A DNA stretch of 64,000 nucleotides from Candidatus Aenigmatarchaeota archaeon (GCA_032249395.1 JAVVFY010000001.1:64825-128824), one strand, 5' to 3'; shown: positions 2,740 through 30,648, counted from the first letter of the stretch. The notes: a model not told the origin generated them from the sequence alone. Program-made: numbers and translations.

Positions 2740-3966
2740 ATGAAGATCTCAATAATTTCAGATGCACACTTAGGATTTTCTCCCGTTGAAAAGCTGGAAG
2801 AAGATAGCTATGAAAATTTTGAAGAAGCATTTACCAAAGCTTTAGATAGTGATTTAATAATTTTGGCTGGAGATTTGTTTGATTCGAGAGCGCCAAAAAC
2901 AAAAGCATGGGCATATGCGTTGAAAATATTATCTAAAGCAACATTGCAAGAGAATAGAGGAGTAAAGCTTGTTGAAATAGATAAGCAACTTAAGGAAGCG
3001 AGCAAGAAAACCTTAGAACATTTACCAGTTATTGCAATTCACGGAAATCATGAGTTGAGAGCAAAAGGAGAAATAAACGCAATAGAGGCTTTAGAGAATG
3101 CAGGTTTGCTAATTTATTTAAACATGAACAAGGTTGTTTTTGAAAAAAATGGAGAAAAAGTCGCTATTTTTGGTTTGTCCCATGTTCCAGAAAGATTTGC
3201 AAAAGACGTGTTAGACAAATGGGATCCAAGACCGTTAGAAGATTGTTTTAACATTTTGCTTTTGCATCAAAACATAGATCCATTTGTTTATTCTCCCTTG
3301 GAGCAGCCCACATTAAATATTTCTAATTTGCCAAGGGGTTTTGACTTGATTGTAGATGGACACATTCACGTATCCACGAAAGAAAAAATTGACAACACAA
3401 TATTCATAATTCCAGGTAGCACAGTAATCACTCAATTTCAAGCTAGTGAAGCTCAAAATCCAAAGGGATTTTTTAAGATTGATACCAAATTGAAGAAAGT
3501 AGAGTTTGTTGAAATTAATGCTAGGAAGTTCTTTTATGAAACGATAGAAATTTCAAGAGAGCAAAACGCAAGAGAAATTATAGAAAGAAAAATTAGAGAA
3601 AAAATATTTGGCAACTTTAAAAAACAACCAATCGTTAAGATTAGAATAACAGGAAATGCTATGATTTCAGAAAAAGATTTGAGAGAGTTAGAAAGAAAAT
3701 ATCAAGATTCTTGTATTTTATTTTTCACAAAATCTCTAGAATCTACCGAGCTAACTCAAAAATTGGAGTTTTTGAGAAGCTTAAAAGAAAGCAGAGTCTC
3801 TCTACAAGAAATAGGTTTAAACATTTTAAAGAAGAGTTTAGATGAATTAAACTTCAAGAACTCTTTTGACTTTGTTGACATTTTTAATTTGCTTGCTGAT
3901 GAAGAAGTCGATACAGCTTTAAACATTTTGTTAGGACAACAAAAAACATTGAGGATGGTAAAATGA
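2740..3966 (+). CDS. mre11: DNA double-strand-break repair nuclease Mre11
   Basis: Calcineurin-like phosphoesterase motifs are present: SDAHLG, GDLFD, GNHE, DGHIH. It overlaps the rad50 start by 4 nt. Confidence 0.9.
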   Translation: MKISIISDAHLGFSPVEKLEEDSYENFEEAFTKALDSDLIILAGDLFDSRAPKTKAWAYALKILSKATLQENRGVKLVEIDKQLKEASKKTLEHLPVIAIHGNHELRAKGEINAIEALENAGLLIYLNMNKVVFEKNGEKVAIFGLSHVPERFAKDVLDKWDPRPLEDCFNILLLHQNIDPFVYSPLEQPTLNISNLPRGFDLIVDGHIHVSTKEKIDNTIFIIPGSTVITQFQASEAQNPKGFFKIDTKLKKVEFVEINARKFFYETIEISREQNAREIIERKIREKIFGNFKKQPIVKIRITGNAMISEKDLRELERKYQDSCILFFTKSLESTELTQKLEFLRSLKESRVSLQEIGLNILKKSLDELNFKNSFDFVDIFNLLADEEVDTALNILLGQQKTLRMVK

Positions 3967-6317
3967 TTAGAAAAGTTGTTTTAAAAAACTGGAAAATTCA
4001 TTTGAATTCAACTTTTGTGTTTGAAAGAGGAGTTAATCTATTAGTAGGACATATGGGAAGTGGAAAGTCTAGCGTTCTAGATGCAATTTGTTTTGGATTG
4101 TATGGAACGTTTCCAGCTTTGCAATCTAGAAAATGGAAGATTGATGATTTGATAATGAGGAAACCATTTGTAAAGGATGAAGCAGAAGTTTATGTCGAGT
4201 TTGAAGCGAATGGTAAAATTTTTAGCGCTAGAAGAGTTTTGAAAAAAGGCAGGGGTTCTTATGCTGAATTTAGAGAAAATGGAAAACTTTTAGAACTGCA
4301 AAGTTCTCAAAGAGTTACAGAACTGGTTGAGAATGAGCTAAAAACAAGCTACGAACTTTTTTCAAAAGTTATTTATTCTGAGCAAAACGGTTTAGACTAC
4401 TTTCTAAGGTTACAATCTGGAGAAAGAAAAAAGAAGATTGATGAGTTGTTGATGATAGATAAGTTTGAGAAGGCCAGATCTGCTACAACAACTTTAATTC
4501 ACAGATTAGAGCAAATAGTAAGAGACAAAGAGAAATACTTGGCATCTATAGATTTTGATAAAATGAAAAGAGAGTTGCAAGAAATAAAACTGGAAGTTGA
4601 GAGATTAGAAAATGAAATTAAAGACAAGAAACTTAAATTATCAGAAATTGCTTCTCAGAGAGTTCTTCTAGAAGAAAACTACAGAAAAATTAAAGAGGTT
4701 AAAGAGAGTATTGATGAGAAGCATAAAGATTTGAAAGCAATTTTAACGATATTGGATAATGCAATAAGGGATGTTTCGAGACTTGAAGAAGAAGTTAAAG
4801 GATTTAATAGAGCAGAAATAGAAAGCAAGATTAGGGACAACGAAAAAACAAGAAAAGAATTGGAACCATATTTGAAAGAGAAAAAAGAAAGGCTAGACAA
4901 ATTACAGAAGGAACTTACAAAAATTGAATCTGAGATCCAATTTTACACGAGAGAAATTTCTAGGATAAAAGAAAAGCTATCTGAGATAGAAAAAATAGAA
5001 GCTTCTCTAAATGAGTTAGAAAAGAGTTTCAACGAAAATTTGTTGGCAGAAAAAGAAAAGAGGCTACAAGAAATAGTTGCAAGGTTAGAAATTTTGAGGA
5101 ACGAGATTAAGAAAAACGAAGAGGCAATTTTACATTTATCTTATGCCGAAAGCAAATGCCCAGTTTGTGATACTAAATTGACTGATGATAAGAAGAGAAA
5201 AATTGTTGAGAAAAAACAGAAGGAAATTGAAGAAAGCAAAAAAGAAGAATCAAATCTTATTAAAGAAAAATATGACATTTTGAGGCAGATTGAAGAAATT
5301 AAGAACAAATTAAAAGAGATAGAAAGAATGAGAGTTTTGGTTAAAGATAAAGAAAAACTTATGAAAGAATTAGAACTAGATGAGAGTACTTTGAAAATAA
5401 ATGAGGACAATAAAGTTGGAGTAGTCAAAGAGATGGAGGAAATTAAGAATATAATAAGAGAGAAAGAAGAATTTTTGAGAAAAGTTTTAGAAGAGAGAGG
5501 CATACTAGAAACAATAAGACAAAGAATTTTGGATTTAGAGAATTTGAAATCAAAGATTTTAGAATATGATAAAATAAAAGAAGAGCTAGAAAGAGAAATT
5601 GCAGATTTATCAAAAGTGGTTGAGGGGAAGAATATCGAAGAGTTTGAAAAGATGCTTAGAGAAATTAGCATGAAAGAAAGAGAAATCGCAGTTGAGATTA
5701 GAGGACTTGAAGAAATTTTGAGAAGAGAGTTAAAAAGAAAAGAAGAGCTAGAGAAAAGTATAGAGTTTGGAGAAAAAGAAAAGGCGGAAGTAGAAAGACT
5801 TAACAAGATTTTAGTCGATTTGAAAGTCTTCAAACAAGCTTTAGAAATAACTCAGGTTAAAATTAGAGAAGACTTTGTTGAGACAGTAAATCATTATATG
5901 GCTAATATTTGGCCAAACCTTTATCCTTATGGAGATTATGTTTCTATAGCTATAAAGATTGAAGAAGGAGATTATGTTTTGCAATTGCAAGAGAGAAGCG
6001 GAAGATGGATAAATGTAGAGGGGATAGCTTCTGGAGGAGAAAGAAGTTTAGCATGTTTGGCTCTTAGAATTGCTTTTTCTTTAGCATTAGCTCCTCAGTT
6101 AAGAATTCTTATTTTAGACGAACCAACGCACAATTTAGACCAAAAAGCTGTAGAAGAATTGGCAAAAGTTTTGAGAGAGAATGTATCAGAATTCATGGAC
6201 CAAGTTTTCATTATAACGCATGATGAAAGGTTGCAAGAAGCAGTTACAGGAAAAGCATACAAGTTAGAAAGAGATAAAAACGTTGATAGCTATACTCAAG
6301 TTGTAGAGATTAGTTGA
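3963..6317 (+). CDS. rad50: DNA double-strand-break repair ATPase Rad50
   Basis: Walker A GHMGSGKSS, a long K/E coiled coil with a CPVC zinc hook, the SGGE signature, and Walker B ILILDEP. Confidence 0.95.
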   Translation: MIRKVVLKNWKIHLNSTFVFERGVNLLVGHMGSGKSSVLDAICFGLYGTFPALQSRKWKIDDLIMRKPFVKDEAEVYVEFEANGKIFSARRVLKKGRGSYAEFRENGKLLELQSSQRVTELVENELKTSYELFSKVIYSEQNGLDYFLRLQSGERKKKIDELLMIDKFEKARSATTTLIHRLEQIVRDKEKYLASIDFDKMKRELQEIKLEVERLENEIKDKKLKLSEIASQRVLLEENYRKIKEVKESIDEKHKDLKAILTILDNAIRDVSRLEEEVKGFNRAEIESKIRDNEKTRKELEPYLKEKKERLDKLQKELTKIESEIQFYTREISRIKEKLSEIEKIEASLNELEKSFNENLLAEKEKRLQEIVARLEILRNEIKKNEEAILHLSYAESKCPVCDTKLTDDKKRKIVEKKQKEIEESKKEESNLIKEKYDILRQIEEIKNKLKEIERMRVLVKDKEKLMKELELDESTLKINEDNKVGVVKEMEEIKNIIREKEEFLRKVLEERGILETIRQRILDLENLKSKILEYDKIKEELEREIADLSKVVEGKNIEEFEKMLREISMKEREIAVEIRGLEEILRRELKRKEELEKSIEFGEKEKAEVERLNKILVDLKVFKQALEITQVKIREDFVETVNHYMANIWPNLYPYGDYVSIAIKIEEGDYVLQLQERSGRWINVEGIASGGERSLACLALRIAFSLALAPQLRILILDEPTHNLDQKAVEELAKVLRENVSEFMDQVFIITHDERLQEAVTGKAYKLERDKNVDSYTQVVEIS

Positions 6318-6363: not shown

Positions 6364-6463
6364 GCCCTGGTAGCTCAACGGTAGAGCACCCGCCTTGTAT
6401 CGCTAGTTTGACTGATGATAGCAAGCTAGCGGGGGGTTGAGGGTTCAAATCCCTCCCAGGGCT
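6364..6463 (+). tRNA. tRNA-Thr (anticodon UGU) with a 28-nt canonical 37/38 intron (about 6400-6427)
   Basis: Acceptor GCCCTGG/CCAGGGC, discriminator U, anticodon TGT at 6396-6398. BHB check: positions 32-35 (cttg) pair with intron caag (6422-6425), followed by the bulge ct|a. Confidence 0.85.
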
Positions 6464-7412: not shown

Positions 7413-8078
7413 ATGAAGCCCAAATACCCAAAAGAGCTATTGAGCTTGGCAAAATTTCTCTTTGAAGCAAATGAAGATTTAAATTTAATTTTAGTTGGAG
7501 GACTAGCAGCTCAGGAAATTTACTCTAATAGAAGAGTAAGAAAAACATCAGATATTGACATACTAACAACTAGAAGTGAAGCAGAAGAGCTTGTTAAAAG
7601 AATGAAGAATAATGGTTATGATGTTTTTTATAATGAAACTTTAGATAAATATTCAATCCAAAGACACGAAGAAGGAATACACATTGATGTATACCCTGAT
7701 AGAATAGGAAGATATTCGATTGAGAATATTTTAAGAGTGATAGAGGTAGATGGGATAAGAGTCGCGTCTGCAGAAGACTTAATTGGTATTAAGATTTATG
7801 CTTATATAACCTCTGATAGAGGAAGAAATAAGCACCTCATTGATATTTATTCGATCTTAATCGGAAAAGTAGAAATAGATTTAGACTACCTTTTGGATAA
7901 AGTGATCCCATACGTTTCTAAAATAACTGACGTTAGCCCAAGAGAATTAATTGGGAAGATGTGTAGCAAAGATGAAGGCGTTTTAGGTCAATTTACTTCT
8001 AAAGAAAAAAGATTCGTTCAAGAAGAATGTAAAAGAATATTAGACTACTTTATGAAAAAGAAGGAACTTAAGGAATGA
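7413..8078 (+). CDS. Nucleotidyltransferase-fold protein (AbiEii/DUF1814-like)
   Basis: LILVGGLAAQEIYSNRRVRKTSDIDILT matches the GG...R.T.DiD pattern of AbiEii-type NTases. 221 aa. Confidence 0.55.
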   Translation: MKPKYPKELLSLAKFLFEANEDLNLILVGGLAAQEIYSNRRVRKTSDIDILTTRSEAEELVKRMKNNGYDVFYNETLDKYSIQRHEEGIHIDVYPDRIGRYSIENILRVIEVDGIRVASAEDLIGIKIYAYITSDRGRNKHLIDIYSILIGKVEIDLDYLLDKVIPYVSKITDVSPRELIGKMCSKDEGVLGQFTSKEKRFVQEECKRILDYFMKKKELKE

Positions 8079-8096: not shown

Positions 8097-9227
8097 CTAA
8101 TCATTTTTAATATTTTTTCTTTCTTCTTCCTTTAGAGTCCTTGAAAGCTCGTGTATCAATTTTCTCACATATTCTCTAAGCTGCTCCACTTCATTTCCTT
8201 TCAATTTTTCAAATTTCTTTTCATCTATTACTTCTTTCTTCAATTCTTCAATTCTCTTCCAAATGTCAAAGTAATAGCTTTCAATTCTCTTTGAATCAAT
8301 GAAGTCTCTTTTAAAAGCATCCCTTATACTAATTCCTAGATGTTTTTCCAGTTCATCTATTTGCATGTTTTCTGGCAACTTGTGTAAAGCTTTTAGTGCT
8401 GTTGCTGCAGCTTTTAACATTACTTCATGCGTTCTTTCAAGAATCTTTTCTTTCTTTCTTATTTCTAAAGCATTTAACAAGCTAAACATTTTATCAACAT
8501 ACTTTTCTGCTCTTTCAATCCATTGATCTACAAATTCTCCTTTTACCTCTAAGAGTTTTTTATGTTCTATGTCTTTTCTTATTTGAACAATTTCTTTCAA
8601 CCATTTTGCATATTCTTCGTCTAATAAGCCTGGTTTAACAAGAAATTCCATAACCTCATCATACAACTTACTTGGTACTGGCGGTTCCAAACCCATAAAC
8701 ATTAAAACTGCTTGAGTAGAATTAACCATAGCATAATAGCAATCTTCAGCAAGCATTAGTAGCTTAACTGTTTTTGCTCTTGCTATTTTCTTTGGAGCAT
8801 CTTCCATGTAACTTTCAATAGCTTCTCTAGTTCCTTGAATTTTTCCAAGTTTTAGCAACCTTTTCCAAGGCATGAAAAAACCAGCATCAAATATAGGTTC
8901 ACCCTCTTTAATAAAATTATAAACTATTGGATGTCCAGACCTAGCATAGTCAACAAATTCAGTTAAAGTATAGGAGGGTTGAATCGAAAGTCTATCTGAA
9001 ATGCTTTTGGCAATCTTTTCTAAATCTTCATCTATAGCTTCTAGCCTTTCATTCGTCAATTCTTCTATTGTATCATCTAAAATAACTATTATATCTATAT
9101 CGCTTTCTGGTTTAAATTCTCCTCTAGCAACTGAACCCATCAAAACTATAGATTTAACTAAATTGCCATATTTTTCTAGAACTCTTTTTCCAAATTCCCT
9201 CGCTTCTTGCAACCTTTTTTCTTCCAT
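8097..9227 (-). CDS. Nucleotidyltransferase + HEPN-like helical domain fusion protein
   Basis: The N-terminus carries GSVARGEFKPESDIDIIVILDD (MNT fold). The C-terminal helical domain has an RX4H motif (RKDIEH, residues 217-222). 376 aa. It is the last gene of a co-directional array. Confidence 0.7.
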   Translation of the reverse strand: MEEKRLQEAREFGKRVLEKYGNLVKSIVLMGSVARGEFKPESDIDIIVILDDTIEELTNERLEAIDEDLEKIAKSISDRLSIQPSYTLTEFVDYARSGHPIVYNFIKEGEPIFDAGFFMPWKRLLKLGKIQGTREAIESYMEDAPKKIARAKTVKLLMLAEDCYYAMVNSTQAVLMFMGLEPPVPSKLYDEVMEFLVKPGLLDEEYAKWLKEIVQIRKDIEHKKLLEVKGEFVDQWIERAEKYVDKMFSLLNALEIRKKEKILERTHEVMLKAAATALKALHKLPENMQIDELEKHLGISIRDAFKRDFIDSKRIESYYFDIWKRIEELKKEVIDEKKFEKLKGNEVEQLREYVRKLIHELSRTLKEEERKNIKND

Positions 9228-9229
9228 TC

Positions 9230-10057
9230 TTATTCCTCTAATATTTCTTTAGGAAGTAGCTTATTAAACCTTTCCATTATTTCTTTTGTTAAATTTAATG
9301 CTTTTTGTAAATAGATGCCATCAACTTCTTTAACTGTTTGATGCTCAACATCTTTCCAAAGCTTATCTATTTCCTTCCACTTTTCAAGGAACTCTCTTTC
9401 TATTTTGCCTTCGTTTATCATCTTTTCAATGTAACTTGAAATTTCCTTAGGGTCTGGTTGTGTTTTGTAATAATACATAACTACTGCTTGAATAATATCA
9501 CTACAACAATATCTTAAATCAAAAATTATACTTTTCAAATCACCTTTTATTTTTTCTAATCTAACTTGGGACGTTTTTTGCTTTATTCTTATAACTTCTT
9601 CGCTTGGTGGTAATAAGCCTAGTTGTAACATTCTTTGCACAGGCTTAACAAAACCAGTATCGTATATAACTAATCCGTATCTTAAAAAGTTTATCAATTC
9701 TGGAGATCCTATTCTAACCCATTGCCAAAATTCAGTTAAATTTGTAGTTTGAACATGTATATCTTTTATATTTTCAGCTGTTATTAGAATTTCCTCTCTT
9801 ATTCTATCGAAATCTACAGAAGTTTTCATTGTAGTATCATCTAAAATGACCCATACGTCCGCATCTGAGGTTGGTTTTACATCGCCTCTCGCTACCGACC
9901 CAAATATAACGACAGACTTAATTATTTCACCGAATTTTTTCCTTATTTCGTTCATGAATTTTACGCTCTTCTCGATAAGAGTTTTTTTCCTTTCTTCTAT
10001 TTCATTTTTTTCAACTAGTTTTATTTCCTTTAACTCTTTTTCTAATTTCTCAATCAT
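9230..10057 (-). CDS. Nucleotidyltransferase + HEPN-like domain fusion protein (paralogue of 8097..9227)
   Basis: GSVARGDVKPTSDADVWVILDD, and the same architecture as its neighbour. The equivalent HEPN motif is WKDVEH, so the Arg is lost. There is a 2-nt gap to the next gene. Confidence 0.7.
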   Translation of the reverse strand: MIEKLEKELKEIKLVEKNEIEERKKTLIEKSVKFMNEIRKKFGEIIKSVVIFGSVARGDVKPTSDADVWVILDDTTMKTSVDFDRIREEILITAENIKDIHVQTTNLTEFWQWVRIGSPELINFLRYGLVIYDTGFVKPVQRMLQLGLLPPSEEVIRIKQKTSQVRLEKIKGDLKSIIFDLRYCCSDIIQAVVMYYYKTQPDPKEISSYIEKMINEGKIEREFLEKWKEIDKLWKDVEHQTVKEVDGIYLQKALNLTKEIMERFNKLLPKEILEE

Positions 10058-10085
10058 TTTTTCACTTATTTTTGTATTTAAAATC

Positions 10086-12020
10086 TTATCTTAACTCTTC
10101 TCTCTTCCATTCTTCAGGCCTCTTACCCTTTTCTACAGCTTTTGCTCCTAAGAATGTGTATTCTTCTTCCGGAACTTGTAAAAGACCCTTTAAAGGATCA
10201 AAAAAATGTTCTTTAATAATCATTAACTGTCTATCTTCTGAGAGAATCTCTCTCGATGATATACCGAAAAATTCTGGAGGGAGGTTTTCTGGTGGCACAT
10301 TCTTCTCTAAATATTCTATTATAATTCTTAAAGCTGCTGCGGATTGACCTATGAATTGAGCAGGATATTGTCCACCTCTTGCACCTCCTCTCTCAAAAAT
10401 GAAAATTCCCTCATATTCTTTATCTTCAAATTTAGTCCCAAACCCAGCTTTTTTAAGCTCATATGCATATTTGTAAATCCAATATTGAGCATCACTACCA
10501 ATATCTATTGGTTGATGAGCAGGATGATAAGGTTTTGGCGCTCCTACATGGAACACAAGTAAGAATTTTCCCGCATCTTTCGCTTCAGCTTGTAGGCTTC
10601 TAGCTTCTAATATAGGGTCTAAATTATTATGCAAATAATGTTCAGCATCAAACACCATTCCTAAATAAACTTTGTTGGTAATTAATTCTGCTGCTTTTAC
10701 CATCTTGTAGATGTCGACTGCATGAATTATTCTTTGCAATCCTTCTTCCCCGACTCTACTTATTTCAGGATTTTCAAAAACTATTGTTAGTCTTCTTTTC
10801 TTTCCCTTTCTTTCTATAAGATTATTTAGAATATCAAGCTTCTCTAAAGGCGTTTTTTTAAGGAAATTTTCTTCTATTTCTTTTATTTTGTCTTTAGAGA
10901 AAGCTTTTTCTAATTTTCTCTTTTCTTCAGCTATGAATTCTTCTCTGTTTTTTTCCATGAAATGTCCTAAAACATATCTAGCAGCAACTAGAGAAACTAT
11001 TTGAGGAGGTAACTTTACTTCTCCCTTTTCTACATCGAAAAATTTACCTTCTCCAAGTAAATCTTTTTCTAATTTTTCCCAACCGTTTTCATCGGAATAG
11101 TTTGTAAAGAAAAGAGTCCATAAAGGCTCTTTATTATTATTTCTTTCTTCAAACAAATATCTAGCAACTATAAGATAGGCTATATCTTCATATGTTATTG
11201 CCCCTTCAGCAAATCTAAGTTTTGTAACGTTTCTAAAAAAATCCCAACTATACTTTTCAATTTCCTTAAGTATTTCATCCCTAATTTCTTTTATTGTCTC
11301 ATCCCTAATTCCTTTTAACCTTTCCTTAATTCTCTCTTCGCTTACTCCTTCTTTCTTTAATTCTTCAATCTTTTCTTTGAATCTTTTTGTAAGCTTATCT
11401 CGTATCTCTTTATTTTCTTTTATAACCCAGTCTGCAATTTTATCTTTTATATCCTCTATGGATACAAAACCCAATCCGCTTTCTTTTCCTATCAAAAGAT
11501 AAAGAAGATTACTCTCTTCAATCCACTTCTTTAATTTTTCATTTTTCTCTATAAAATTAATCCAGTTCATATCTCCACTTGGAGTTACTGTTATTTGCCC
11601 AGCATACCTATATCTCTCGACAATCATAGCTATTGTAGGTAAATTTGATGCATGGAATACAATATATCGCGGCATGTATTCTATATAGTCCCCCTCTACA
11701 CAAAATTTTATAAATAGTGTATCTAAGTATTGGTGAAGCCTTCTATGGCTATGTTTCCAAACGACTTCTAATGCACTTTCCAACGCCATCATCTCTCCAA
11801 TTTCTCCATGCATCCCCCAATCGACTTGCATTGTATCCACAAGCCTCTTTATGTTTTTAACAACTTCTGGCTCTTGAAATTCAGCTATACTTTCAAAATC
11901 GACTTGAACAAAATTAACACCATAAGTAATAGCTGATCCAATTTTGCTAGCTATGCCTAACAATTCTTCGCCTCTTGCTATAGACCACCAACCACTTGAA
12001 ACTCCAATTTTGTAGCTCAT
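10086..12020 (-). CDS. Xylose-isomerase/AP-endonuclease-2-like TIM-barrel protein with a large helical insertion (function unknown)
   Basis: 644 aa. Barrel-like strand/metal-ligand pattern: IGVSSG, VQVDFE, WGMHGE, IVFHASN, then a K/E-rich insert of about 250 aa, then IVFENPE, VFDAEHY, LVFHVG..H, IFIFERGG. This is pattern recognition only. The start overlaps the upstream stop (ATGA). Confidence 0.55.
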   Translation of the reverse strand: MSYKIGVSSGWWSIARGEELLGIASKIGSAITYGVNFVQVDFESIAEFQEPEVVKNIKRLVDTMQVDWGMHGEIGEMMALESALEVVWKHSHRRLHQYLDTLFIKFCVEGDYIEYMPRYIVFHASNLPTIAMIVERYRYAGQITVTPSGDMNWINFIEKNEKLKKWIEESNLLYLLIGKESGLGFVSIEDIKDKIADWVIKENKEIRDKLTKRFKEKIEELKKEGVSEERIKERLKGIRDETIKEIRDEILKEIEKYSWDFFRNVTKLRFAEGAITYEDIAYLIVARYLFEERNNNKEPLWTLFFTNYSDENGWEKLEKDLLGEGKFFDVEKGEVKLPPQIVSLVAARYVLGHFMEKNREEFIAEEKRKLEKAFSKDKIKEIEENFLKKTPLEKLDILNNLIERKGKKRRLTIVFENPEISRVGEEGLQRIIHAVDIYKMVKAAELITNKVYLGMVFDAEHYLHNNLDPILEARSLQAEAKDAGKFLLVFHVGAPKPYHPAHQPIDIGSDAQYWIYKYAYELKKAGFGTKFEDKEYEGIFIFERGGARGGQYPAQFIGQSAAALRIIIEYLEKNVPPENLPPEFFGISSREILSEDRQLMIIKEHFFDPLKGLLQVPEEEYTFLGAKAVEKGKRPEEWKREELR

Positions 12021-13774
12021 AATCTAACCTCAATTTGATATCCTGGAACCTGGAAAGACGATGCTAAGTAACTTTTTATTTGATTGAAAATCATTCCAGA
12101 AAACTTAAAGTAATACTTAGCAATTCTATAAGCAACATTGTGCTCGTATGGTCCATATGCTCTAATGAAAGTTAGCTGGATGCCAAAATAATCTAGAATT
12201 TTCTTAAAATAATCTAGAATTGATTTTTTCTTTTTTTCAATTTTAGCTTCTTTTGGCGTGAAATATTCTTTAATTTCACTTTCACTTCCATAAATAAATA
12301 GAAACTCCTCTTTCAGCATTTCTTTGACTCTTTTAAGCTTATTATCTTTATCAAAACCTAATTCTCCTAAAAGCAAATCTATTTCGCTTTCAAGAGCCTT
12401 TTCTTTTGCCATTATTTCGAGAATATGTCCAATTATTATGTTTTGTGTTTTTACGTATGACTTAAGATTACCTATTTCTAAATCTTCAAGTTGAGCACCG
12501 TTTGGCAGTACAAGAACAACTCTATCCATTGGTATTTCCAAAAAAACGAAATATGGAGAGAAAGGCCATGTAACTTTTAGTCCCTCTGGAGAACTTTTAT
12601 ATCTGCTTAATAATCTTTTTCGAGCTTCAAATAAATCCTCGATTGTAAGTTGTACACCGTATTTTTTCCCATACTCATCGTTTATTCTTTTCATTATTTC
12701 TCTAACAACATTATCTACAGATGGCTCGATTGGTAACGCTTCAATCATTTCGTCTTCGCCTATTTTACCTTTTTTTTTGAGTATTTCTATTTCTTCTTCT
12801 GTAAATCCAGCCTTTTTTGCATGTATTTTATCGAAATATTCTCTACTTGCTTTCCATTTCTCTTCTGGAGCAAAAGGTTTCCAAGCCCATATTGTCATAG
12901 AATCTATTGAGAATGCTTGAGCTTCTGGTCTAAAAAATAGTTTCACCATCGCTGTTCTTCCTCCAGATGAAGAAAGCATATCGTTTATCATTTTGTACCT
13001 AGCTATTAGTGGTTTTATCATTTCTTTATATTCTTTTACGGAATTTTCTCTTGCTACAGCGAGTTCTTTTAATCTTTCATATCTTTGCCTTACTGTTGTT
13101 TCGAACATTTCTAGCCAACTCAAAAATAGTTTATTTTTTGTAGCAAGCACAACCTTTTCTGCATAAGAGACATCTAACTTTATCTCTTCGGGAGATTTCT
13201 CTTTATCCAATTTCATGAAGTCAGAAATTATAGTTGGCCATCTCGAGACTATTGAACGAAGAGCTATTGGTGTATTTGGAAGGTCTGTATGAATATCTAC
13301 TTGGTCTATAAATATGGATCTTAGAGTTTGAATTGCTCTCATTCTCTTATTTTTTGCTTCTTCAATCTTCTTCTCATCTTTTTCTCTTTTTATCGTTTCT
13401 TCTGCTTCTCTAATTTCATTAAAAATTTTTAAATATTCTCTGTATTTTCTTAAATCGTGCAATATCAATTCTAAATCTGCATAAGCTTGAGCAATGCTTG
13501 CTAATCCATTCTTTATTTGTTGCATAAGTCTTTCTCTTTCTCCCAAAACCAAGTCATAATATCCTTTGTTTATTTGAGAAACAAAAATACTCTCACTTAC
13601 TTTAAATCTCTCGAAGCCCCACTTTCCTAGTTGAAACATTAGCCCATAATAAACTCCTGTACACTTACCCAGTGGAGCTGTAAAGTCGAGCAATATATTT
13701 TGATCTGGAGGATTTGCGTTTATTCCTTCTCCAGGTTTCATTCCTCTCCCAGGATATTGAGGATAATCAACCAT
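12017..13774 (-). CDS. Hypothetical protein, 585 aa, translationally coupled to the TIM-barrel protein
   Basis: A long uninterrupted ORF with ordinary codon usage and a central coiled-coil-like segment. I recognise no motif. Confidence 0.75.
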   Translation of the reverse strand: MVDYPQYPGRGMKPGEGINANPPDQNILLDFTAPLGKCTGVYYGLMFQLGKWGFERFKVSESIFVSQINKGYYDLVLGERERLMQQIKNGLASIAQAYADLELILHDLRKYREYLKIFNEIREAEETIKREKDEKKIEEAKNKRMRAIQTLRSIFIDQVDIHTDLPNTPIALRSIVSRWPTIISDFMKLDKEKSPEEIKLDVSYAEKVVLATKNKLFLSWLEMFETTVRQRYERLKELAVARENSVKEYKEMIKPLIARYKMINDMLSSSGGRTAMVKLFFRPEAQAFSIDSMTIWAWKPFAPEEKWKASREYFDKIHAKKAGFTEEEIEILKKKGKIGEDEMIEALPIEPSVDNVVREIMKRINDEYGKKYGVQLTIEDLFEARKRLLSRYKSSPEGLKVTWPFSPYFVFLEIPMDRVVLVLPNGAQLEDLEIGNLKSYVKTQNIIIGHILEIMAKEKALESEIDLLLGELGFDKDNKLKRVKEMLKEEFLFIYGSESEIKEYFTPKEAKIEKKKKSILDYFKKILDYFGIQLTFIRAYGPYEHNVAYRIAKYYFKFSGMIFNQIKSYLASSFQVPGYQIEVRL

Positions 13775-13797
13775 ATTTATTTTTTGTTTTCAAGATA

Positions 13798-13956
13798 TTA
13801 GCTTTTTAAAAGAAAGATTCCAATACCTGTTAATATTATTCCTATTATTGTTGTTGCCTTTGCCATACCTTCTGGTTGATATTTATCCAAGAATGGAAAA
13901 AATATTATTAGAGAGAGACCAACTAAAATTAAAAAAATTCCCAATATTTTTCGCAT
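13798..13956 (-). CDS. Small membrane protein (52 aa, 2 TM)
   Basis: My translation: MRKILGIFLILVGLSLIIFFPFLDKYQPEGMAKATTIIGIILTGIGIFLLKS*. It lies 23 nt upstream of the 585-aa gene and is below the ORF-track size cutoff. Confidence 0.4.
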   Translation of the reverse strand: MRKILGIFLILVGLSLIIFFPFLDKYQPEGMAKATTIIGIILTGIGIFLLKS

Positions 13957-13961
13957 ATACT

Positions 13962-14105
13962 TCACCTAAAAATAAGCGCTAAGTATAAAAAAAGCATACC
14001 TAATAATAAGGCTATTTCAAATCCTCTCCTTTTGGTTGAGTAAATCGCAATAAAAGTGAATAAGATGCCTAAAGTAAGAAATATGGAAAATATCAAAGCT
14101 CTCAT
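13962..14105 (-). CDS. Small membrane protein (47 aa, 2 TM)
   Basis: My translation: MRALIFSIFLTLGILFTFIAIYSTKRRGFEIALLLGMLFLYLALIFR*. It lies 5 nt upstream of the next small ORF. Confidence 0.4.
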   Translation of the reverse strand: MRALIFSIFLTLGILFTFIAIYSTKRRGFEIALLLGMLFLYLALIFR

Positions 14106-14138
14106 AACACTTTTTTATTGATAGAGTAAATAAATATT

Positions 14139-14687
14139 ATGCCGATATTTGCAAGAACTAAGCTCGTTATTCATGAAGATTGTTTAGAAGTTCCGGGAAG
14201 TCCGTTGCCTGGAAAGAAATTCTTAACTTTAGAATATTACGGTCCAAATCCACAAGCAGCATATTATTATGTCAAGAAGCTTCTTTCTCAAGTAACAAAA
14301 GTCCCGGAGAGCGAAATAATAGAGAGAGATTTTTCATGGAATAAAGAAGGAGATAATGAAAGTTTTAGTGTGACTTTTGATGTCATAAAGGATATGGATA
14401 GATTTAGTTTCATACAAATAAGTGTTAGTATGAAAGGGGAGATAAAAAAAAGTAAAGAAGTTGGTAAAGAAGGCAGTTTAAAAGTAAATATTGATGGATC
14501 GTTGAGGACAGAATATCCCCAAGACACTTTATGGCAAAGAAGCTTACTTTATGAAATTTTTAGAGCTTTCTATCATAAATTCATATATGAAGATAGTAGA
14601 AAGAAATATAAGCAGGAGTGTTTAAATTTGATGAATGAGATATACTCTTCTCTTAAACAATTTCTTAATGTCCTACCACAAAGATAA
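14139..14687 (+). CDS. Hypothetical protein, tandem paralogue A
   Basis: 182 aa. It aligns by eye with the next ORF: YYGPNP..AYY, ERDFSW..., TEYP, and a C-terminal F/Y-rich helix. Confidence 0.7.
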   Translation: MPIFARTKLVIHEDCLEVPGSPLPGKKFLTLEYYGPNPQAAYYYVKKLLSQVTKVPESEIIERDFSWNKEGDNESFSVTFDVIKDMDRFSFIQISVSMKGEIKKSKEVGKEGSLKVNIDGSLRTEYPQDTLWQRSLLYEIFRAFYHKFIYEDSRKKYKQECLNLMNEIYSSLKQFLNVLPQR

Positions 14688-14689
14688 TT

Positions 14690-15187
14690 ATGGCGTCTTG
14701 GATTTTAGAAGACGATTGTCTTGCCCCAGAAAGATACGTAAGAATTGTTTACAATGGTCCGAATCCATTTCACGCTTATCAGTCTTCTTACGCTATTTTT
14801 AGAAAAGTTATGGAAATCGATCCATCCGATTATCAAGAAAGAGAATTTAGATGGGATATAACCGATGATCCTAGAGATTTTTATGTTAGAGTTATAGTCC
14901 AAAAGAATTTAGATTCTCGAAGCTCAATATATTTTGAAATAATAATGCAAGGCAAACAACCAACAGACCCTTCCAAAAATGGAACTTTAACTATATTAAT
15001 TGGAGCGAAGCTTAAAACTGAATATGCGCTTAACACCCCATTTCAACAATCTTTTTTTTACAGGACGCTTCTTTGGTTTTATAATCATTTTTTCTATTTT
15101 GGTGTTAGAAGAAGATACATAAAGATGTGTAATGACTGGATGACAAATATAGTTAAAGCTTATAGAAAATTATTAAAACTTGAATAA
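14690..15187 (+). CDS. Hypothetical protein, tandem paralogue B
   Basis: 165 aa. It shares VYNGPNPFHAY, EREFRWD and KTEYA with paralogue A and starts 2 nt after A's stop. Confidence 0.7.
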   Translation: MASWILEDDCLAPERYVRIVYNGPNPFHAYQSSYAIFRKVMEIDPSDYQEREFRWDITDDPRDFYVRVIVQKNLDSRSSIYFEIIMQGKQPTDPSKNGTLTILIGAKLKTEYALNTPFQQSFFYRTLLWFYNHFFYFGVRRRYIKMCNDWMTNIVKAYRKLLKLE

Positions 15188-15219
15188 AATAATTTTTAAT
15201 TGCGAAAATAAAACTAAAA

Positions 15220-15498
15220 ATGCTGAGAATAAAGCTTCCATTCATAAGAGAAAATAAAGAAAGTAAGGAAACAAAAGAGACATTTACTCAATTTCAAGTA
15301 CCTCAAAAAGAAACAAAAGAAGAAATAAACCAAACATCAATAAAGCAAAGAGAGGAAAAGAGTATGGAATTAGAAGTTATTTCAGCAAAAATTGATGCTT
15401 TGAAATTTCAGTATGAGGCTTTAAGCGAAAAAATAAATAATATAGAAAAGATGGTAAAAGAAATTTATGAGATGGCTAAAAATTCTTCAAGTGTATGA
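15220..15498 (+). CDS. Small coiled-coil protein
   Basis: 92 aa, with a K/E/T-rich N-terminus and a heptad-like C-terminus. Confidence 0.45.
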   Translation: MLRIKLPFIRENKESKETKETFTQFQVPQKETKEEINQTSIKQREEKSMELEVISAKIDALKFQYEALSEKINNIEKMVKEIYEMAKNSSSV

Positions 15499-18236: not shown

Positions 18237-18328
18237 TGGGCTCGGTGGGATTTGAACCCACGACCCCCCGCTTTCTTAGGAGCATCGCCATATAAGGCGG
18301 GTGCTCCACCAGGCTAAGCTACGAGCCC
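18237..18328 (-). tRNA. tRNA-Ile with anticodon UAU and an 18-nt canonical intron
   Basis: The reverse complement folds as GGGCTCG...CCCGC-CTTATA|tggcgatgctcctaagaa|A-GCGGG...GTGGG-TTCAAAT-CCCAC-CGAGCCC-A. BHB check: CUUA (positions 32-35) pairs with intron UAAG, followed by the bulge aa|A. Confidence 0.8.
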
Positions 18329-25020: not shown

Positions 25021-25121
25021 GCCCGGGTGGCCGAGTGGCGAGGCAACCGGCTGCAGACTGGTATTTTGATTGAATGATAGGTAAATACCGGTTTACAGGG
25101 GTTCGAATCCCCTCCCGGGCT
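25021..25121 (+). tRNA. tRNA-Cys (anticodon GCA) with a roughly 30-nt intervening sequence of ambiguous position
   Basis: Acceptor GCCCGGG/CCCGGGC with discriminator U73 (a Cys identity element), anticodon loop CTGCAGA, T arm AGGGG-TTCGAAT-CCCCT. About 30 extra nt (around 25057-25086) are flanked by the direct repeat AC(T/C)GGT. Confidence 0.8.
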
Positions 25122-28772: not shown

Positions 28773-28898
28773 ATGAATTGTTTAAGATGTAACTCGTTAA
28801 ACGTAACTTCATTAACATCCACATTTCCATTCGTGTATATCTGTAAAGATTGTGGCCTTACGTTTAACAAAAATTCAAATCCTTGGATAGATGAGTAG
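28773..28898 (+). CDS. Small zinc-ribbon protein (41 aa)
   Basis: My translation: MNCLRCNSLNVTSLTSTFPFVYICKDCGLTFNKNSNPWIDE*, with CxxC...CxxC. Its stop lies 1 nt before the glmS ATG. Confidence 0.4.
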   Translation: MNCLRCNSLNVTSLTSTFPFVYICKDCGLTFNKNSNPWIDE

Positions 28899-28899
28899 C

Positions 28900-30648
28900 A
28901 TGTGTGGAATAATTGGCTATATTGGCAATAAAAATGCAAACGTGATTGTATTAGATGGAATAAAGAGGCTCGAGTATAGAGGTTATGATAGTGTAGGAAC
29001 TTGTTTTATAAGCAATGAAAGGCTTGTTATCAAAAAGGACGTTGGAAAGATAGAAGAGGTTCATAAGAAATTAAACTTTCTTGAACCTAAAAGCAATATT
29101 GGGGTGGCACACACAAGATGGGCAACCCATGGTGGTGTAACTAGAGAAAACGCTCATCCCCACTCAGATTGCAACGAAAAAATAGCAATAGTTCACAATG
29201 GAATAATAGAAAACTATCAAGAAATAAAAGAGTTCTTAGAGTCAAAAGGCCATAAGTTCAAAAGTCAAACTGACAGCGAAGTTGCAGCTCATTTGATAGA
29301 AGAATTTAATAAAAAACTTGATTTTGAAAATGCTTGTAAAAAAGCTTTTTCAATGCTTCGTGGAAGTTTCGCAATTATAGCAATAAAAGAAGATGAGGAA
29401 AAAATTGTTGGAATAAGAAAAGATTCTCCTCTTGTTGTTGGAATAAACGAAGGTGAAAGTTTTGTAGCTAGTGATATTTATGCATTACTTCCTTTCACGA
29501 AAAATTTCATCTTCCTTCAAAATTACGATTTTGTAGTTTTAGAGAAGGGGAAAGTTAAGATAGAGAATTTGATTGATGGAAAAGTTGAGAGAAAAGTTGA
29601 GAGAATTGATATCAATGTTGAAGAAACGGATAAAAAAGATTTTCATCATTACATGATTAAAGAAATTTTGGAACAAGCAGATGTTTTTGAAAGAGCATTC
29701 TATCAAGATGAGAAAAAGATTGAAAAATTTATCGAAGAGATAAAAAGAGCTAAAAAAATATTTCTCGTTGCTGCTGGAACTTCTTACCATGCTTCTCTAG
29801 CTGGGAGTTATTTATTTTCAAAAGCAGGTATTCTTGCGAAACCTGTTATTGCTTCAGAATTTAACAATTTTTTGAATGTTGTCGATGAAAACACTCTAAT
29901 AATTGCTGTTTCTCAATCTGGAGAGACTGCAGACGTTCTTGATGCGATAAGAAAAGCAAAAGAAAGAAAAGCAAAGATATTTTCAATAGTTAATGTTTAT
30001 GGCTCTAGCTTAACAAGAGAAAGCGACGAGTTTTTGCTAACGAATGCTGGTTTTGAAATAGGCGTTGCCGCTACAAAAACATATATTGCTGAGTTGACAA
30101 TCTTTCTTTTACTCTATTCAAAATTGACAAATAAAAAAATAAACAAAGAAGAAATAAAGGCAAAAATTCTTGATTTGCTTTCAAGAAGTAGGAGAGAACA
30201 TGTAGAAAAGGTTGCTGAATTGTTAAAAGATAAGCAACATATATTTTTGATTGGAAGAGGTCTAGAATATGTAACGGCTTTGGAAGCTGCATTAAAAATA
30301 AAAGAAATTTCTTACATACATGCTGAAGCTTTTCCGGGAGGAGAAATAAAGCATGGAACAATCGCTCTTATAGAAAAAGATACCCCTTGCATTGTTTTTG
30401 TTGGTGAAGAAAAAGAGAAAATATTATCAAATGCTGAAGAGTTAAAGGCAAGAGGAGGTTTTATAATTGGCGTTTCAGAAGAAAAAGAGAAAATTTTCGA
30501 CATTTGGATTAAAGTTCCGCAAGATGGAGAAGCCTCTCTAATATATCAAATAATTCCGATGCAACTTTTAGCTTATAGGCTAGCTGTTTTAAGAGGATTC
30601 GATCCTGATAAACCGAGAAATCTTGCAAAATCTGTTACGGTTTTGTAG
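28900..30648 (+). CDS. glmS: Glutamine--fructose-6-phosphate aminotransferase
   Basis: MCGIIGYIG has the N-terminal nucleophile Cys2, so the start is 28900 and not 28891. Two SIS domains, and the C-terminus reads DKPRNLAKSVTV. Confidence 0.95.
   Translation: MCGIIGYIGNKNANVIVLDGIKRLEYRGYDSVGTCFISNERLVIKKDVGKIEEVHKKLNFLEPKSNIGVAHTRWATHGGVTRENAHPHSDCNEKIAIVHNGIIENYQEIKEFLESKGHKFKSQTDSEVAAHLIEEFNKKLDFENACKKAFSMLRGSFAIIAIKEDEEKIVGIRKDSPLVVGINEGESFVASDIYALLPFTKNFIFLQNYDFVVLEKGKVKIENLIDGKVERKVERIDINVEETDKKDFHHYMIKEILEQADVFERAFYQDEKKIEKFIEEIKRAKKIFLVAAGTSYHASLAGSYLFSKAGILAKPVIASEFNNFLNVVDENTLIIAVSQSGETADVLDAIRKAKERKAKIFSIVNVYGSSLTRESDEFLLTNAGFEIGVAATKTYIAELTIFLLLYSKLTNKKINKEEIKAKILDLLSRSRREHVEKVAELLKDKQHIFLIGRGLEYVTALEAALKIKEISYIHAEAFPGGEIKHGTIALIEKDTPCIVFVGEEKEKILSNAEELKARGGFIIGVSEEKEKIFDIWIKVPQDGEASLIYQIIPMQLLAYRLAVLRGFDPDKPRNLAKSVTVL

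Follow-up and report, generated by a model that had tools for sequence, protein, structure and literature searches.

A conserved DPANN gene module that joins a divergent xylose-isomerase-like TIM barrel to nucleotidyltransferase-HEPN fusions and may process nucleic-acid ends

In the genome of a Candidatus Aenigmatarchaeota archaeon (GCA_032249395.1) we analysed a stretch of 64,000 nucleotides (JAVVFY010000001.1:64825-128824), referred to here as the window, in which all positions are counted from the first letter. It contains an array of six minus-strand open reading frames (ORFs) at 8097-14138, which encodes two miniproteins, a 585-residue and a 644-residue protein and two nucleotidyltransferase-HEPN fusions, and a divergent unit of three further genes. 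The comparison of this locus across genomes indicates that it is very probably a vertically inherited, functionally linked core module and not a mobile defence island. We regard the module as specific to the Aenigmatarchaeota-Nanohaloarchaeota part of DPANN and as a constitutively expressed multi-subunit enzyme module. Its function is unproven, and the reading that we favour, a housekeeping complex processing nucleic-acid ends, is given a probability of roughly one in three. The components, with lengths in amino acids (aa) and with NTase standing for nucleotidyltransferase, are the following.

8097..9227, minus strand: 376-aa fusion of an NTase and a HepT-like HEPN domain (PF01909; PF01934 in orthologues)
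9230..10057, minus strand: 275-aa fusion of an NTase and a HEPN-like domain (PF01909; paralogue of the 376-aa protein)
10086..12020, minus strand: 644-aa xylose-isomerase-like TIM barrel with a helical insertion (AlphaFold2 model, Foldseek, invariant columns)
12017..13774, minus strand: 585-aa protein, a fold family without known relative (ORF scan, AlphaFold2 model)
13798..13956, minus strand: 52-aa miniprotein, a hairpin of two transmembrane segments (ORF from the ATG at 13956; conserved)
13962..14105, minus strand: 47-aa miniprotein with two transmembrane segments (ORF scan; lineage-restricted, outside the conserved core)
14106..14138, no strand: AT-rich divergent intergenic region of 33 bp (read from the sequence)
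14139..15498, plus strand: divergent unit of 182-aa and 165-aa paralogues and a 92-aa coiled-coil protein, co-conserved with the array

The ORF scan returned the six minus-strand ORFs exactly as they had been laid out in a preliminary description made from the sequence alone, and the spacings and all motifs quoted there were likewise recovered. According to the ORF coordinates, the gaps between successive ORFs are 5, 23, -4, 28 and 2 nt. The negative value corresponds to the ATGA overlap at 12017-12020, which joins the start codon of the 644-aa gene to the stop codon of the 585-aa gene.

The conservation of this arrangement was assessed in a scan of one genome per GTDB species, using patterns derived from the 585-aa family. 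Relatives of the 585-aa protein were carried by 158 GTDB species, and the linkage counts below were obtained from the best 80 of these 158 loci, in which ORFs were called and searched with the window proteins. All of these 80 loci are labelled Aenigmatarchaeota or 'uncultured archaeon'. The 644-aa gene was located immediately after the 585-aa gene in 72 of 73 loci, with a median gap of 0 nt and many 4-nt overlaps, in agreement with the translational coupling that had been proposed from the single ATGA. In the 73rd locus (L067) the 585-aa gene is split by a frameshift and the 644-aa gene follows it directly. One or both NTase genes were present downstream in 40/45 loci (both paralogues in 38), usually at less than 100 nt from the 644-aa gene and sometimes separated from it by inserted genes over 0.4-2.7 kb. 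The divergent pair of 182-aa and 165-aa genes was found upstream in 61 of 66 loci. The recurrence of this arrangement in 80 species-level genomes places it far beyond chance. The cluster occupies a single, fixed syntenic locus in 80/80 genomes, and its neighbours include YchF, Yip1, an AsnC-type regulator and TFIIB.

Linkage that survives rearrangement across phyla is a classical signature of functional coupling. The cluster genes remained linked despite rearrangement in the loci L087-L091, which include that of Ca. Nanohalococcus occultus (L090, CP180231.1). The gene order in L087 is 165, 182 followed by 52, 585, 644 and NTase; in L091 the 585-aa and 52-aa genes lie on one strand and the 182-aa, 165-aa and 644-aa genes on the other; and the nanohaloarchaeal loci consist of the 585-aa gene, the 644-aa gene, one intervening gene and the NTase gene. 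Since the linkage survives the shuffling of gene order in Nanohaloarchaeota and other DPANN archaea, the functional link among the cluster genes is well supported. The preliminary description had proposed a survey of gene neighbourhoods and named the lack of a conserved linkage to the NTase-HEPN genes among the findings that would speak against its idea; the survey found this linkage conserved and persisting through rearrangement. The same observations bear on the explanation that unrelated housekeeping genes have simply been kept together by small, rarely rearranged DPANN genomes. YchF, AsnC, Cob_adeno_trans and TFIIB are also often nearby, as could be expected from frozen synteny. However, these neighbours lie at changing distances and are missing from some loci, whereas the core is contiguous. 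Its linkage has outlasted the inversions or reorderings seen in L088, L090 and L091, and start-stop overlaps have been kept in many genomes. We therefore consider frozen synteny to have a very slight chance of being the correct explanation.

The functional unit exceeds the six genes of the array. The divergent genes for the 182-, 165- and 92-aa proteins belong to it, and the 47-aa ORF falls outside the conserved core, so that the preliminary description has to be corrected as to the extent of the unit. Homologues of the 47-aa miniprotein were detected in the four closest relatives alone (L007-L010). The 52-aa miniprotein, the other of the two small membrane proteins reported initially, is conserved and was found upstream of the 585-aa gene in 51/66 loci by a single-sequence search, and it was detected also in L087, L088 and L091. 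The mechanical ORF of its gene extends over 13798-13965 with a GTG start, whereas the ATG at 13956 yields 52 aa, and a Shine-Dalgarno-like sequence, GGTGA, is located 5 nt upstream of this ATG. The consensus of the miniprotein contains the loop motif FP....YQPE.M and no Cys. The 182-aa and 165-aa proteins are paralogues (hhalign probability 100%, E 3e-45) that bear the motifs GPNP and LRTEYPQDT..WQRSL, and this pair accompanies the array across phyla: in L087, L088 and L091 it is still found with the TIM barrel despite altered strand and order. No Pfam family or PDB match was obtained for the 182-, 165- and 92-aa proteins, and hhalign revealed no relationship of the 182/165-aa pair to the 585-aa or 644-aa protein. 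The three proteins probably belong to the same machine as the products of the array.

One metagenome-assembled genome, JZ-2_201705_bins_269, harboured two complete clusters (L032 and L069, on scaffolds 15 and 1). Their 585-aa homologues are 45% and 39% identical to the 585-aa protein of the window, which reflects either a mixed bin or a real duplication.

The 644-aa protein had been suspected to be a TIM barrel of the xylose-isomerase type on account of its motifs, and structural comparison agreed with this (Foldseek E 2e-4, target TM 0.66; weak AP_endonuc_2 matches). The AlphaFold2 model, built from 42 homologues, is an eight-stranded barrel with a predicted local distance difference test score (pLDDT) of 85.6 and a predicted template modelling score (pTM) of 0.85. 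Between beta4 and beta5 it contains a K/E-rich helical insertion of ~255 aa (residues ~150-405), close to the size of about 250 aa expected beforehand. The motifs HGE, FHASN, FENPE, FDAEH, FHVG and FERGG are all present, and in the model they are situated where the strands 67-71, 119-123, 412-416, 453-458, 487-492 and 538-542 end. In the search against the PDB the best E value was 2.2e-4 with a probability of 1.00, and the target TM was 0.59-0.67 for many members of the superfamily. At the sequence level, AP_endonuc_2 (PF01261) matched 4/43 members of the 644-aa family at E 7e-4 or weaker, below the gathering score; barrel constructs from which the insertion had been deleted gave two weak AP_endonuc_2 matches alone in Pfam; and the 644-aa protein produced no meaningful match to Pfam, NCBIfam, PADLOC, PHROG or PDB sequences. 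Among 1.84 billion representative proteins searched with a profile, 210 representatives of the barrel family were recovered at E <=1e-3. Members occur in the Nanohaloarchaeota, among them SVXNc_0669 of the cultured Ca. Nanohalococcus occultus, and in a 'DPANN group archaeon'. SVXNc_0669 is named 'Portal protein' in UniRef, a name that was rejected because neither PHROG nor the viral contigs supported it.

Eight residues, H71, H123, E416, D458, H461, H491, H502 and E543, were invariant in 43 sequences of the 644-aa family, and the same eight were kept in six remote homologues, Nanohaloarchaeota included. These five His and three carboxylates are placed at or after the ends of strands beta3-beta8 or in the beta7 loop, in the order His in beta3, His in beta4, Glu in beta5, Asp-x-x-His in beta6, His in beta7, His in the beta7 loop and Glu in beta8. 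In E. coli endonuclease IV (Nfo, PDB 1QTW), which belongs to the same barrel superfamily as the archaeal MJ1311/PfuAPE-like proteins, the three-metal site is formed by H69, H109, E145, D179, H182, H216, D229, H231 and E261. Eight of these nine ligands have putative counterparts in the 644-aa protein, assigned by strand position and from a partial hhalign alignment. When the insertion-deleted 644 profile was aligned with an MJ1311-like family, composed of AP_endonuc_2 proteins from the same genomes, 245 columns were covered with a probability of 67%, E 5e-5 and a score of 42, and the ligand columns coincided; shuffled and reversed controls scored 13-22 (E 0.05-0.6). We conclude that the 644-aa protein represents a new, very divergent family of the xylose-isomerase-like superfamily with a predicted multi-metal site, its chemistry being undecided. 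It differs from endonuclease IV in the 255-aa insertion that splits the barrel, in a conserved C-terminal tail and in its obligatory 585-aa partner. The tail comprises the C-terminal ~35 residues (window 10086-10160), which are highly conserved (..PEEEYTFLG..EKGK.PEEWKKEELR) and whose aromatic/acidic end is kept in remote homologues, and it has a pLDDT below 50 in the model. These features suggest that it serves for docking and becomes folded only upon contact with a partner.

The structural comparison on its own would favour a different kind of enzyme, as the top 50 Foldseek matches in the PDB were L-ribulose, D-allulose and D-tagatose 3-epimerases, xylose isomerases and other sugar-converting barrels of the same family. 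The ketose 3-epimerases and xylose isomerases, which match best overall and of which L-ribulose 3-epimerase (3VYL) is an example, share with the 644-aa protein the DxxH motif and the Glu/Asp/His/Glu metal-ligand tetrad at the C-terminal strand ends (E416, D458, H491 and E543). The barrel could epimerise or isomerise a ketose or a sugar phosphate, the NTases would nucleotidylylate a hydroxyl of a sugar-like metabolite, and the module would serve at the membrane to make or salvage a compound for storage or for the cell envelope. The membrane miniprotein in the cluster would suit such a pathway, and so would the kinship of the NTases, whose closest solved sequence relative is the N-terminus of kanamycin nucleotidyltransferase (profile E 7e-9). 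However, the sequence identity to the ketose 3-epimerases and xylose isomerases is 7-13%, and the insertion, the partner protein and the NTase linkage are without counterpart among ketose epimerases. The eight invariant residues exceed the single-metal E-D-H-E site of these enzymes by the further His residues H71, H123, H461 and H502, of which the single-Mn ketose 3-epimerases share His461 (in DxxH) and lack the beta3 and beta4 His, as judged from unverified sequences. The hhalign scores against epimerase sequences that were likewise unverified (DPEase, DTE) were 13-15, which is noise. Moreover, the cluster lacks any consistent linkage to genes for a sugar kinase, a transporter or a glycosyltransferase, and a large coiled-coil partner would be unusual for a metabolic enzyme. 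Thus, a role in sugar or small-molecule metabolism appears unlikely.

The ligand set admits one more comparison, as a pattern of His, Asp and Glu ligands is common to endonuclease IV and the multinuclear non-haem iron enzymes. The barrel and its obligatory 585-aa partner might modify the 52-aa protein in the way that MbnB/MbnC act on MbnA, or as DUF692 enzymes do. The order of small ORF, partner and barrel with translational coupling, and the conserved YQPE in the loop of the 52-aa miniprotein, are what this proposal would predict. On the other hand, the top 50 Foldseek matches contained no DUF692/MbnB structure, and Pfam gave no DUF692 match at E <=1 (full-length) or <=10 (barrel-only), thresholds to be read with the HMMER filters in mind, which drop most matches above ~0.1. 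The miniprotein is a two-transmembrane hairpin without Cys, unlike the known substrates, and the gene order changes in L088 and L091. We regard such a modification system as highly improbable.

The 585-aa protein was found to have no recognisable motif when its sequence was first read, and searches have borne this out: neither a sequence relative nor a fold relative was detected. The family comprises 332 homologues at 90% clustering. Its AlphaFold2 model is of moderate confidence (pLDDT 77.7, pTM 0.67). In this model distant segments come together in a beta-sheet core, residues 70-158 and 204-268 each form a long helical hairpin, and C-terminal helices follow a K-rich linker that is disordered. 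The sequence had no match in Pfam, NCBIfam, PADLOC, PHROG or PDB, and Foldseek searches of the PDB and BFVD with the model returned coiled-coil noise and no significant match. The comparison of predicted structures called for in the preliminary description has therefore placed the 644-aa protein in the barrel superfamily and left the 585-aa protein without a match. Two candidate relatives were dismissed: ribosomal protein S25e (profile match, E 0.004), because the match is driven by the K-rich linker, and the maturation proteins of ssRNA phages, to which Foldseek assigned low probability and a TM of ~0.1. The 408-aa gene beside the most remote barrel homologue (L006) is no relative of the 585-aa family, and a second ORF of 585 aa in the window (28891-30648) is not a paralogue but GlmS.

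The 275-aa and 376-aa proteins are paralogues (31% identity, E 5e-35), and their description as fusions of an NTase with a HEPN-like domain was corroborated by PF01909 matches in both (E 1.4e-9 and 3e-12, respectively) and by HepT-like PF01934 in 12/29 orthologues of the 376-aa protein (best E 6.6e-5). The NTase motif GS-x10-DxD, formed by G31-S32...D43-x-D45 in the 376-aa and by G53-S54...D65-x-D67 in the 275-aa protein, is conserved family-wide. The Rx4H motif of the HEPN domain is divided between the paralogues in the manner originally reported. In the 376-aa family, R217-x4-H222 is invariant (RKDIEH in the window), whereas the 275-aa family has W-K-D-x-x-H with Trp in the place of the catalytic Arg (WKDVEH in the window), with a conservation of at least 95% for W234 and H239 among 54 sequences. 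After its HEPN domain the 376-aa protein carries a helical C-terminal extension of ~115 aa. The single NTases of the Nanohaloarchaeota and of L088 have retained GS-x10-DxD and lost Rx4H; because of this loss, RNA cleavage is not a universal activity of the family. The NTase of L088 (10537-12099, 520 aa) has an N-terminal K-rich segment and a helix-hairpin-helix domain (PF22357 at 24.4 bits, with a cutoff of 23.9; HHH_5 at E 2.3e-5). A genome paper assigns SVXNc_0671, the Pol-beta-type NTase of the cluster in Ca. Nanohalococcus occultus, to glycogen synthesis, an annotation that looks unfounded.

Among systems with both domains, HepT/MntA and the fused FhepTA (PMC13000451) share with the window proteins the GS-x10-DxD motif and, in the case of the 376-aa protein, a HepT-like HEPN domain with R-phi-xxxH, and FhepTA is with 276 aa nearly equal in length to the 275-aa protein. 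In FhepTA/MntA the Tyr of R-phi-xxxHxY is the AMPylated acceptor (PMC13000451). An acceptor Tyr two residues past the His is absent here: the window sequences are RKDIEHKK and WKDVEHQT, and the family consensus has no Tyr. The proteins described here differ further from HepT/MntA/FhepTA by the Trp that replaces the Arg in one paralogue, by the loss of the motif in Nanohaloarchaeota, by the additional ~115-aa extension of the 376-aa protein and by their occurrence off mobile elements, phylum-wide and slowly evolving. Kanamycin nucleotidyltransferase ANT(4') (PDB 1KNY, 6P01) also combines an NTase with a helical, HEPN-like substrate-binding domain and works as a dimer. However, the N-terminal ~60 residues alone align with it, the C-terminal domain here is HepT-like with Rx4H, and nothing suggests an aminoglycoside substrate.

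The preliminary description had placed the array among defence and toxin-antitoxin loci. The MNT-HEPN proteins would then represent type VII-like modules or abortive-infection effectors, with the barrel and the 585-aa protein as accessory effectors or sensors. The HEPN domain is indeed HepT-like, the closest NCBIfam model of the NTases is MntA (E 3e-7), the PADLOC candidate PDC-S09 also matches the NTase domain (E 1e-13), fused MNT-HEPN modules of 276 aa (FhepTA) exist in Shewanella (PMC13000451), and an AbiEii-like nucleotidyltransferase adjoins the array. The distribution of the module points elsewhere, since the cluster is phylum-wide, single-locus and syntenic in a housekeeping context, and no relatives were present among the 2.9 million viral contigs of IMG/VR. 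Among PADLOC-DB v2 models, the 585-aa protein matched none, the 644-aa protein only ZorB (E 0.095) and the NTases only PDC-S09 and PDC-M05A, so that nothing beyond generic NTase models was hit. The AbiEii-like neighbour is not conserved, and the missing acceptor Tyr and the change of Arg to Trp in one paralogue also speak against a toxin-antitoxin pair.

The rates of evolution and transcription likewise disagree with defence. Toxin-antitoxin and defence genes seldom evolve more slowly than YchF. In the 34 genomes that contained all families, the median identity to the window proteins was 62% for the 376-aa protein, the most conserved of the cluster, and 55% for the 275-aa protein, compared with 55% for YchF; thus the NTases evolve as slowly as YchF or more slowly. 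The values for the other families were 50% (182 aa), 44% (165 aa), 43% (585 aa) and 31% (644 aa). The transcription of the cluster in the cultured nanohaloarchaeon is approximately at the level of RadA and aminoacyl-tRNA synthetases. The reads per kilobase per million for the cluster homologues of Ca. Nanohalococcus occultus were 1659 for SVXNc_0668, 1287 for SVXNc_0669 and 2660 for SVXNc_0671, with a median of 547 over the first 164 coding sequences listed, and 80/185 and 265/465 for the two canonical HEPN/MNT pairs that this organism also possesses (PMC10266531, Table S1). The expression of the NTase is thus ~6-33x that of the canonical pairs. Taken together, these data make a defence or toxin-antitoxin function quite improbable.

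Another possibility is that the NTases regulate the enzyme beside them. They could AMPylate or UMPylate the 585-aa protein, the 644-aa protein or each other, in a GlnE/GlnD-like or MntA-like manner, while the barrel would carry out an unrelated metal-dependent reaction or remove the nucleotide, and the HEPN-like domain would bind the substrate and not act as an RNase. The plan of an NTase followed by a four-helix HEPN-like domain is the architecture of kanamycin nucleotidyltransferase, GlnE/GlnD and DUF294, and DUF294 (best E 2.6e-6) as well as the N-terminal NTase domain of adenylate cyclase were matched by all 29 orthologues of the 376-aa protein. The weak match of the NTases to PII uridylyltransferase and that to MntA point in the same direction. 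Moreover, GS-x10-DxD has been retained without exception, whereas Nanohaloarchaeota and L088 dispense with Rx4H, and the NTase is the most conserved and the most highly expressed member of the module. However, the acceptor Tyr of MntA/FhepTA is lacking from both paralogues, the invariant R217 and H222 of the 376-aa family suggest a working site, and the helix-hairpin-helix domain fused to the NTase of L088 speaks for nucleic acid as the substrate. A regulated enzyme is, in our judgement, a possible but doubtful explanation.

In the favoured reading, a housekeeping complex that processes nucleic-acid ends, the 585-aa and 644-aa proteins would form a complex whose barrel would be a multi-metal phosphoesterase directed at a phosphodiester or a phosphomonoester end of nucleic acid, with 3'-end cleaning or an endonuclease IV-like incision as its possible role. 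The 275-aa and 376-aa proteins would associate through their HEPN-like domains into a heterodimer that adds nucleotides to the same substrate, and the Rx4H site may also cut RNA in Aenigmatarchaeota. The membrane hairpin and the small paralogues could be structural or anchoring subunits. The MNT-HEPN part would probably be a domesticated module of the toxin-antitoxin type.

Several genomic contexts are consistent with this proposal. The NTase fused to a helix-hairpin-helix domain in L088 is a hint of a nucleic-acid substrate. Further hints come from the HepT-like HEPN domain of the 376-aa family with its invariant Rx4H and from the DPANN-wide MNT-HEPN fusion that Makarova et al. 2019 (PMC6393860) noted in a housekeeping context. 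In L087, the 585/644 homologues are directly followed by the single NTase-HEPN gene, and 4-nt overlaps link this gene to an ORF of 67 aa and that ORF to a gene for ATP-dependent DNA ligase; these three genes occupy 10421-13400. An MJ1311/endonuclease IV-like gene is located directly after the 376-aa gene in ~10 loci of one subclade, for example at L001 12142-12942 (266 aa) and also in L038, L046, L048, L049, L055, L060 and L072. This 266-aa protein, a canonical member of AP_endonuc_2, matches MJ1311 (PDB 3WQO) at E 5.5e-19 and Nfo with an hhalign probability of 97%; the 64-kb window has no MJ1311-like gene. Mre11 (2740-3966) and Rad50 (3963-6317) lie 2-5 kb from the array in the window, which provides circumstantial support, and NYN, TatD, UDG, EndoV and RecJ genes occur near remote loci.

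A number of observations weigh against nucleic-acid end processing. Endonuclease IV was not in the top 50 Foldseek matches, the best of which were sugar epimerases and isomerases, and the hhalign comparison of the barrel with the verified sequence of E. coli Nfo (1QTW) scored 22 (E 0.037), which is noise. The MJ1311-like family that bridges the two is equally close to Nfo and to ketose epimerases, the latter represented by unverified sequences. The equivalent of Asp229 of endonuclease IV (D506) is conserved only within Aenigmatarchaeota. The 585-aa and 644-aa proteins have no recognisable nucleic-acid-binding motif, and the 644-aa protein is acidic (pI 5.7). The ligase is operonic in L087 alone and DNA-repair neighbours are sporadic, the single NTases of Nanohaloarchaeota and L088 have no Rx4H, and the proposal does not account for the membrane hairpin or for the 182-, 165- and 92-aa proteins. 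Finally, Ca. Nanohalococcus occultus possesses a canonical endonuclease IV and a CCA-adding enzyme. Its possession of both led us to reject the ideas that the NTases replace the CCA-adding enzyme or that the 644-aa protein replaces endonuclease IV.

A more specific form of end processing can be offered only tentatively: the domesticated MNT-HEPN proteins, a tri-metal barrel, the 585-aa protein with its new fold and the small subunits might constitute a lineage-defining machine for an essential step of nucleic-acid end processing or repair, one that other archaea may perform differently. Should the module prove to be a machine for the repair or processing of nucleic acids, it would be a toxin-antitoxin module exapted into core metabolism and would contain a new branch of the endonuclease IV/xylose-isomerase barrel superfamily. 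A different function, too, would probably be connected with the DPANN way of life. DPANN genomes are ~1 Mb in size and have lost most biosynthesis. Two DPANN phyla keep this module of 7-8 kb intact despite their reduced genomes, and for four of its protein families no relatives can be recognised, which makes the module archaeal dark matter of high priority. A cultured carrier, Ca. Nanohalococcus occultus growing with Haloferax volcanii, makes the module tractable.

A part of the module has probably been noticed before. Makarova et al. 2019 (PMC6393860) noted an MNT-HEPN fusion of unusual conservation across DPANN, cls.004259 (NEQ050), in which an MNT-type NTase is followed by HEPN in one polypeptide within a housekeeping neighbourhood. 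By architecture and context, the 275/376-aa fusions probably belong to the same family. The accessible part of that paper makes no mention of the link to the TIM barrel, the 585-aa partner, the membrane hairpin, the 182/165-aa pair or the R/W tandem, and our literature search found no description of the larger module. As far as these sources go, the module as a whole is without known counterpart, its enzyme folds come from known superfamilies, and its MNT-HEPN fusion was probably noted in 2019.

The AT-rich 33-bp spacer at 14106-14138, which had been described as a control region shared by the array and the divergent gene, is present between them and contains TATA-like runs at about -20 to -33 from each ATG. 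Judged by its sequence, the spacer could hold two promoters placed back to back, from which leaderless archaeal transcripts would start. No structured RNA or tRNA was found inside the array, and the G+C content is ~31% throughout the window, which shows no compositional island. At the 3' end of the array, the gene for the AbiEii/NTP_transf_5-like nucleotidyltransferase (221 aa; 7413-8078, plus strand) converges on it with an 18-nt gap. This gene recurs solely in the close relative L013 and is thus a variable neighbour outside the module. Three tRNA genes of the window, at 6364-6463 (plus strand), 18237-18328 (minus strand) and 25021-25121 (plus strand), are 92-101 nt long and probably contain introns; ARAGORN missed the one at 6364-6463 and gave no anticodon for that at 18237-18328. 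At 1493-2159 on the minus strand, two tblastn segments in different frames show 31-34% identity to ATP-dependent DNA ligase, and this region, just upstream of Mre11, resembles a short or frameshifted ligase-like remnant.

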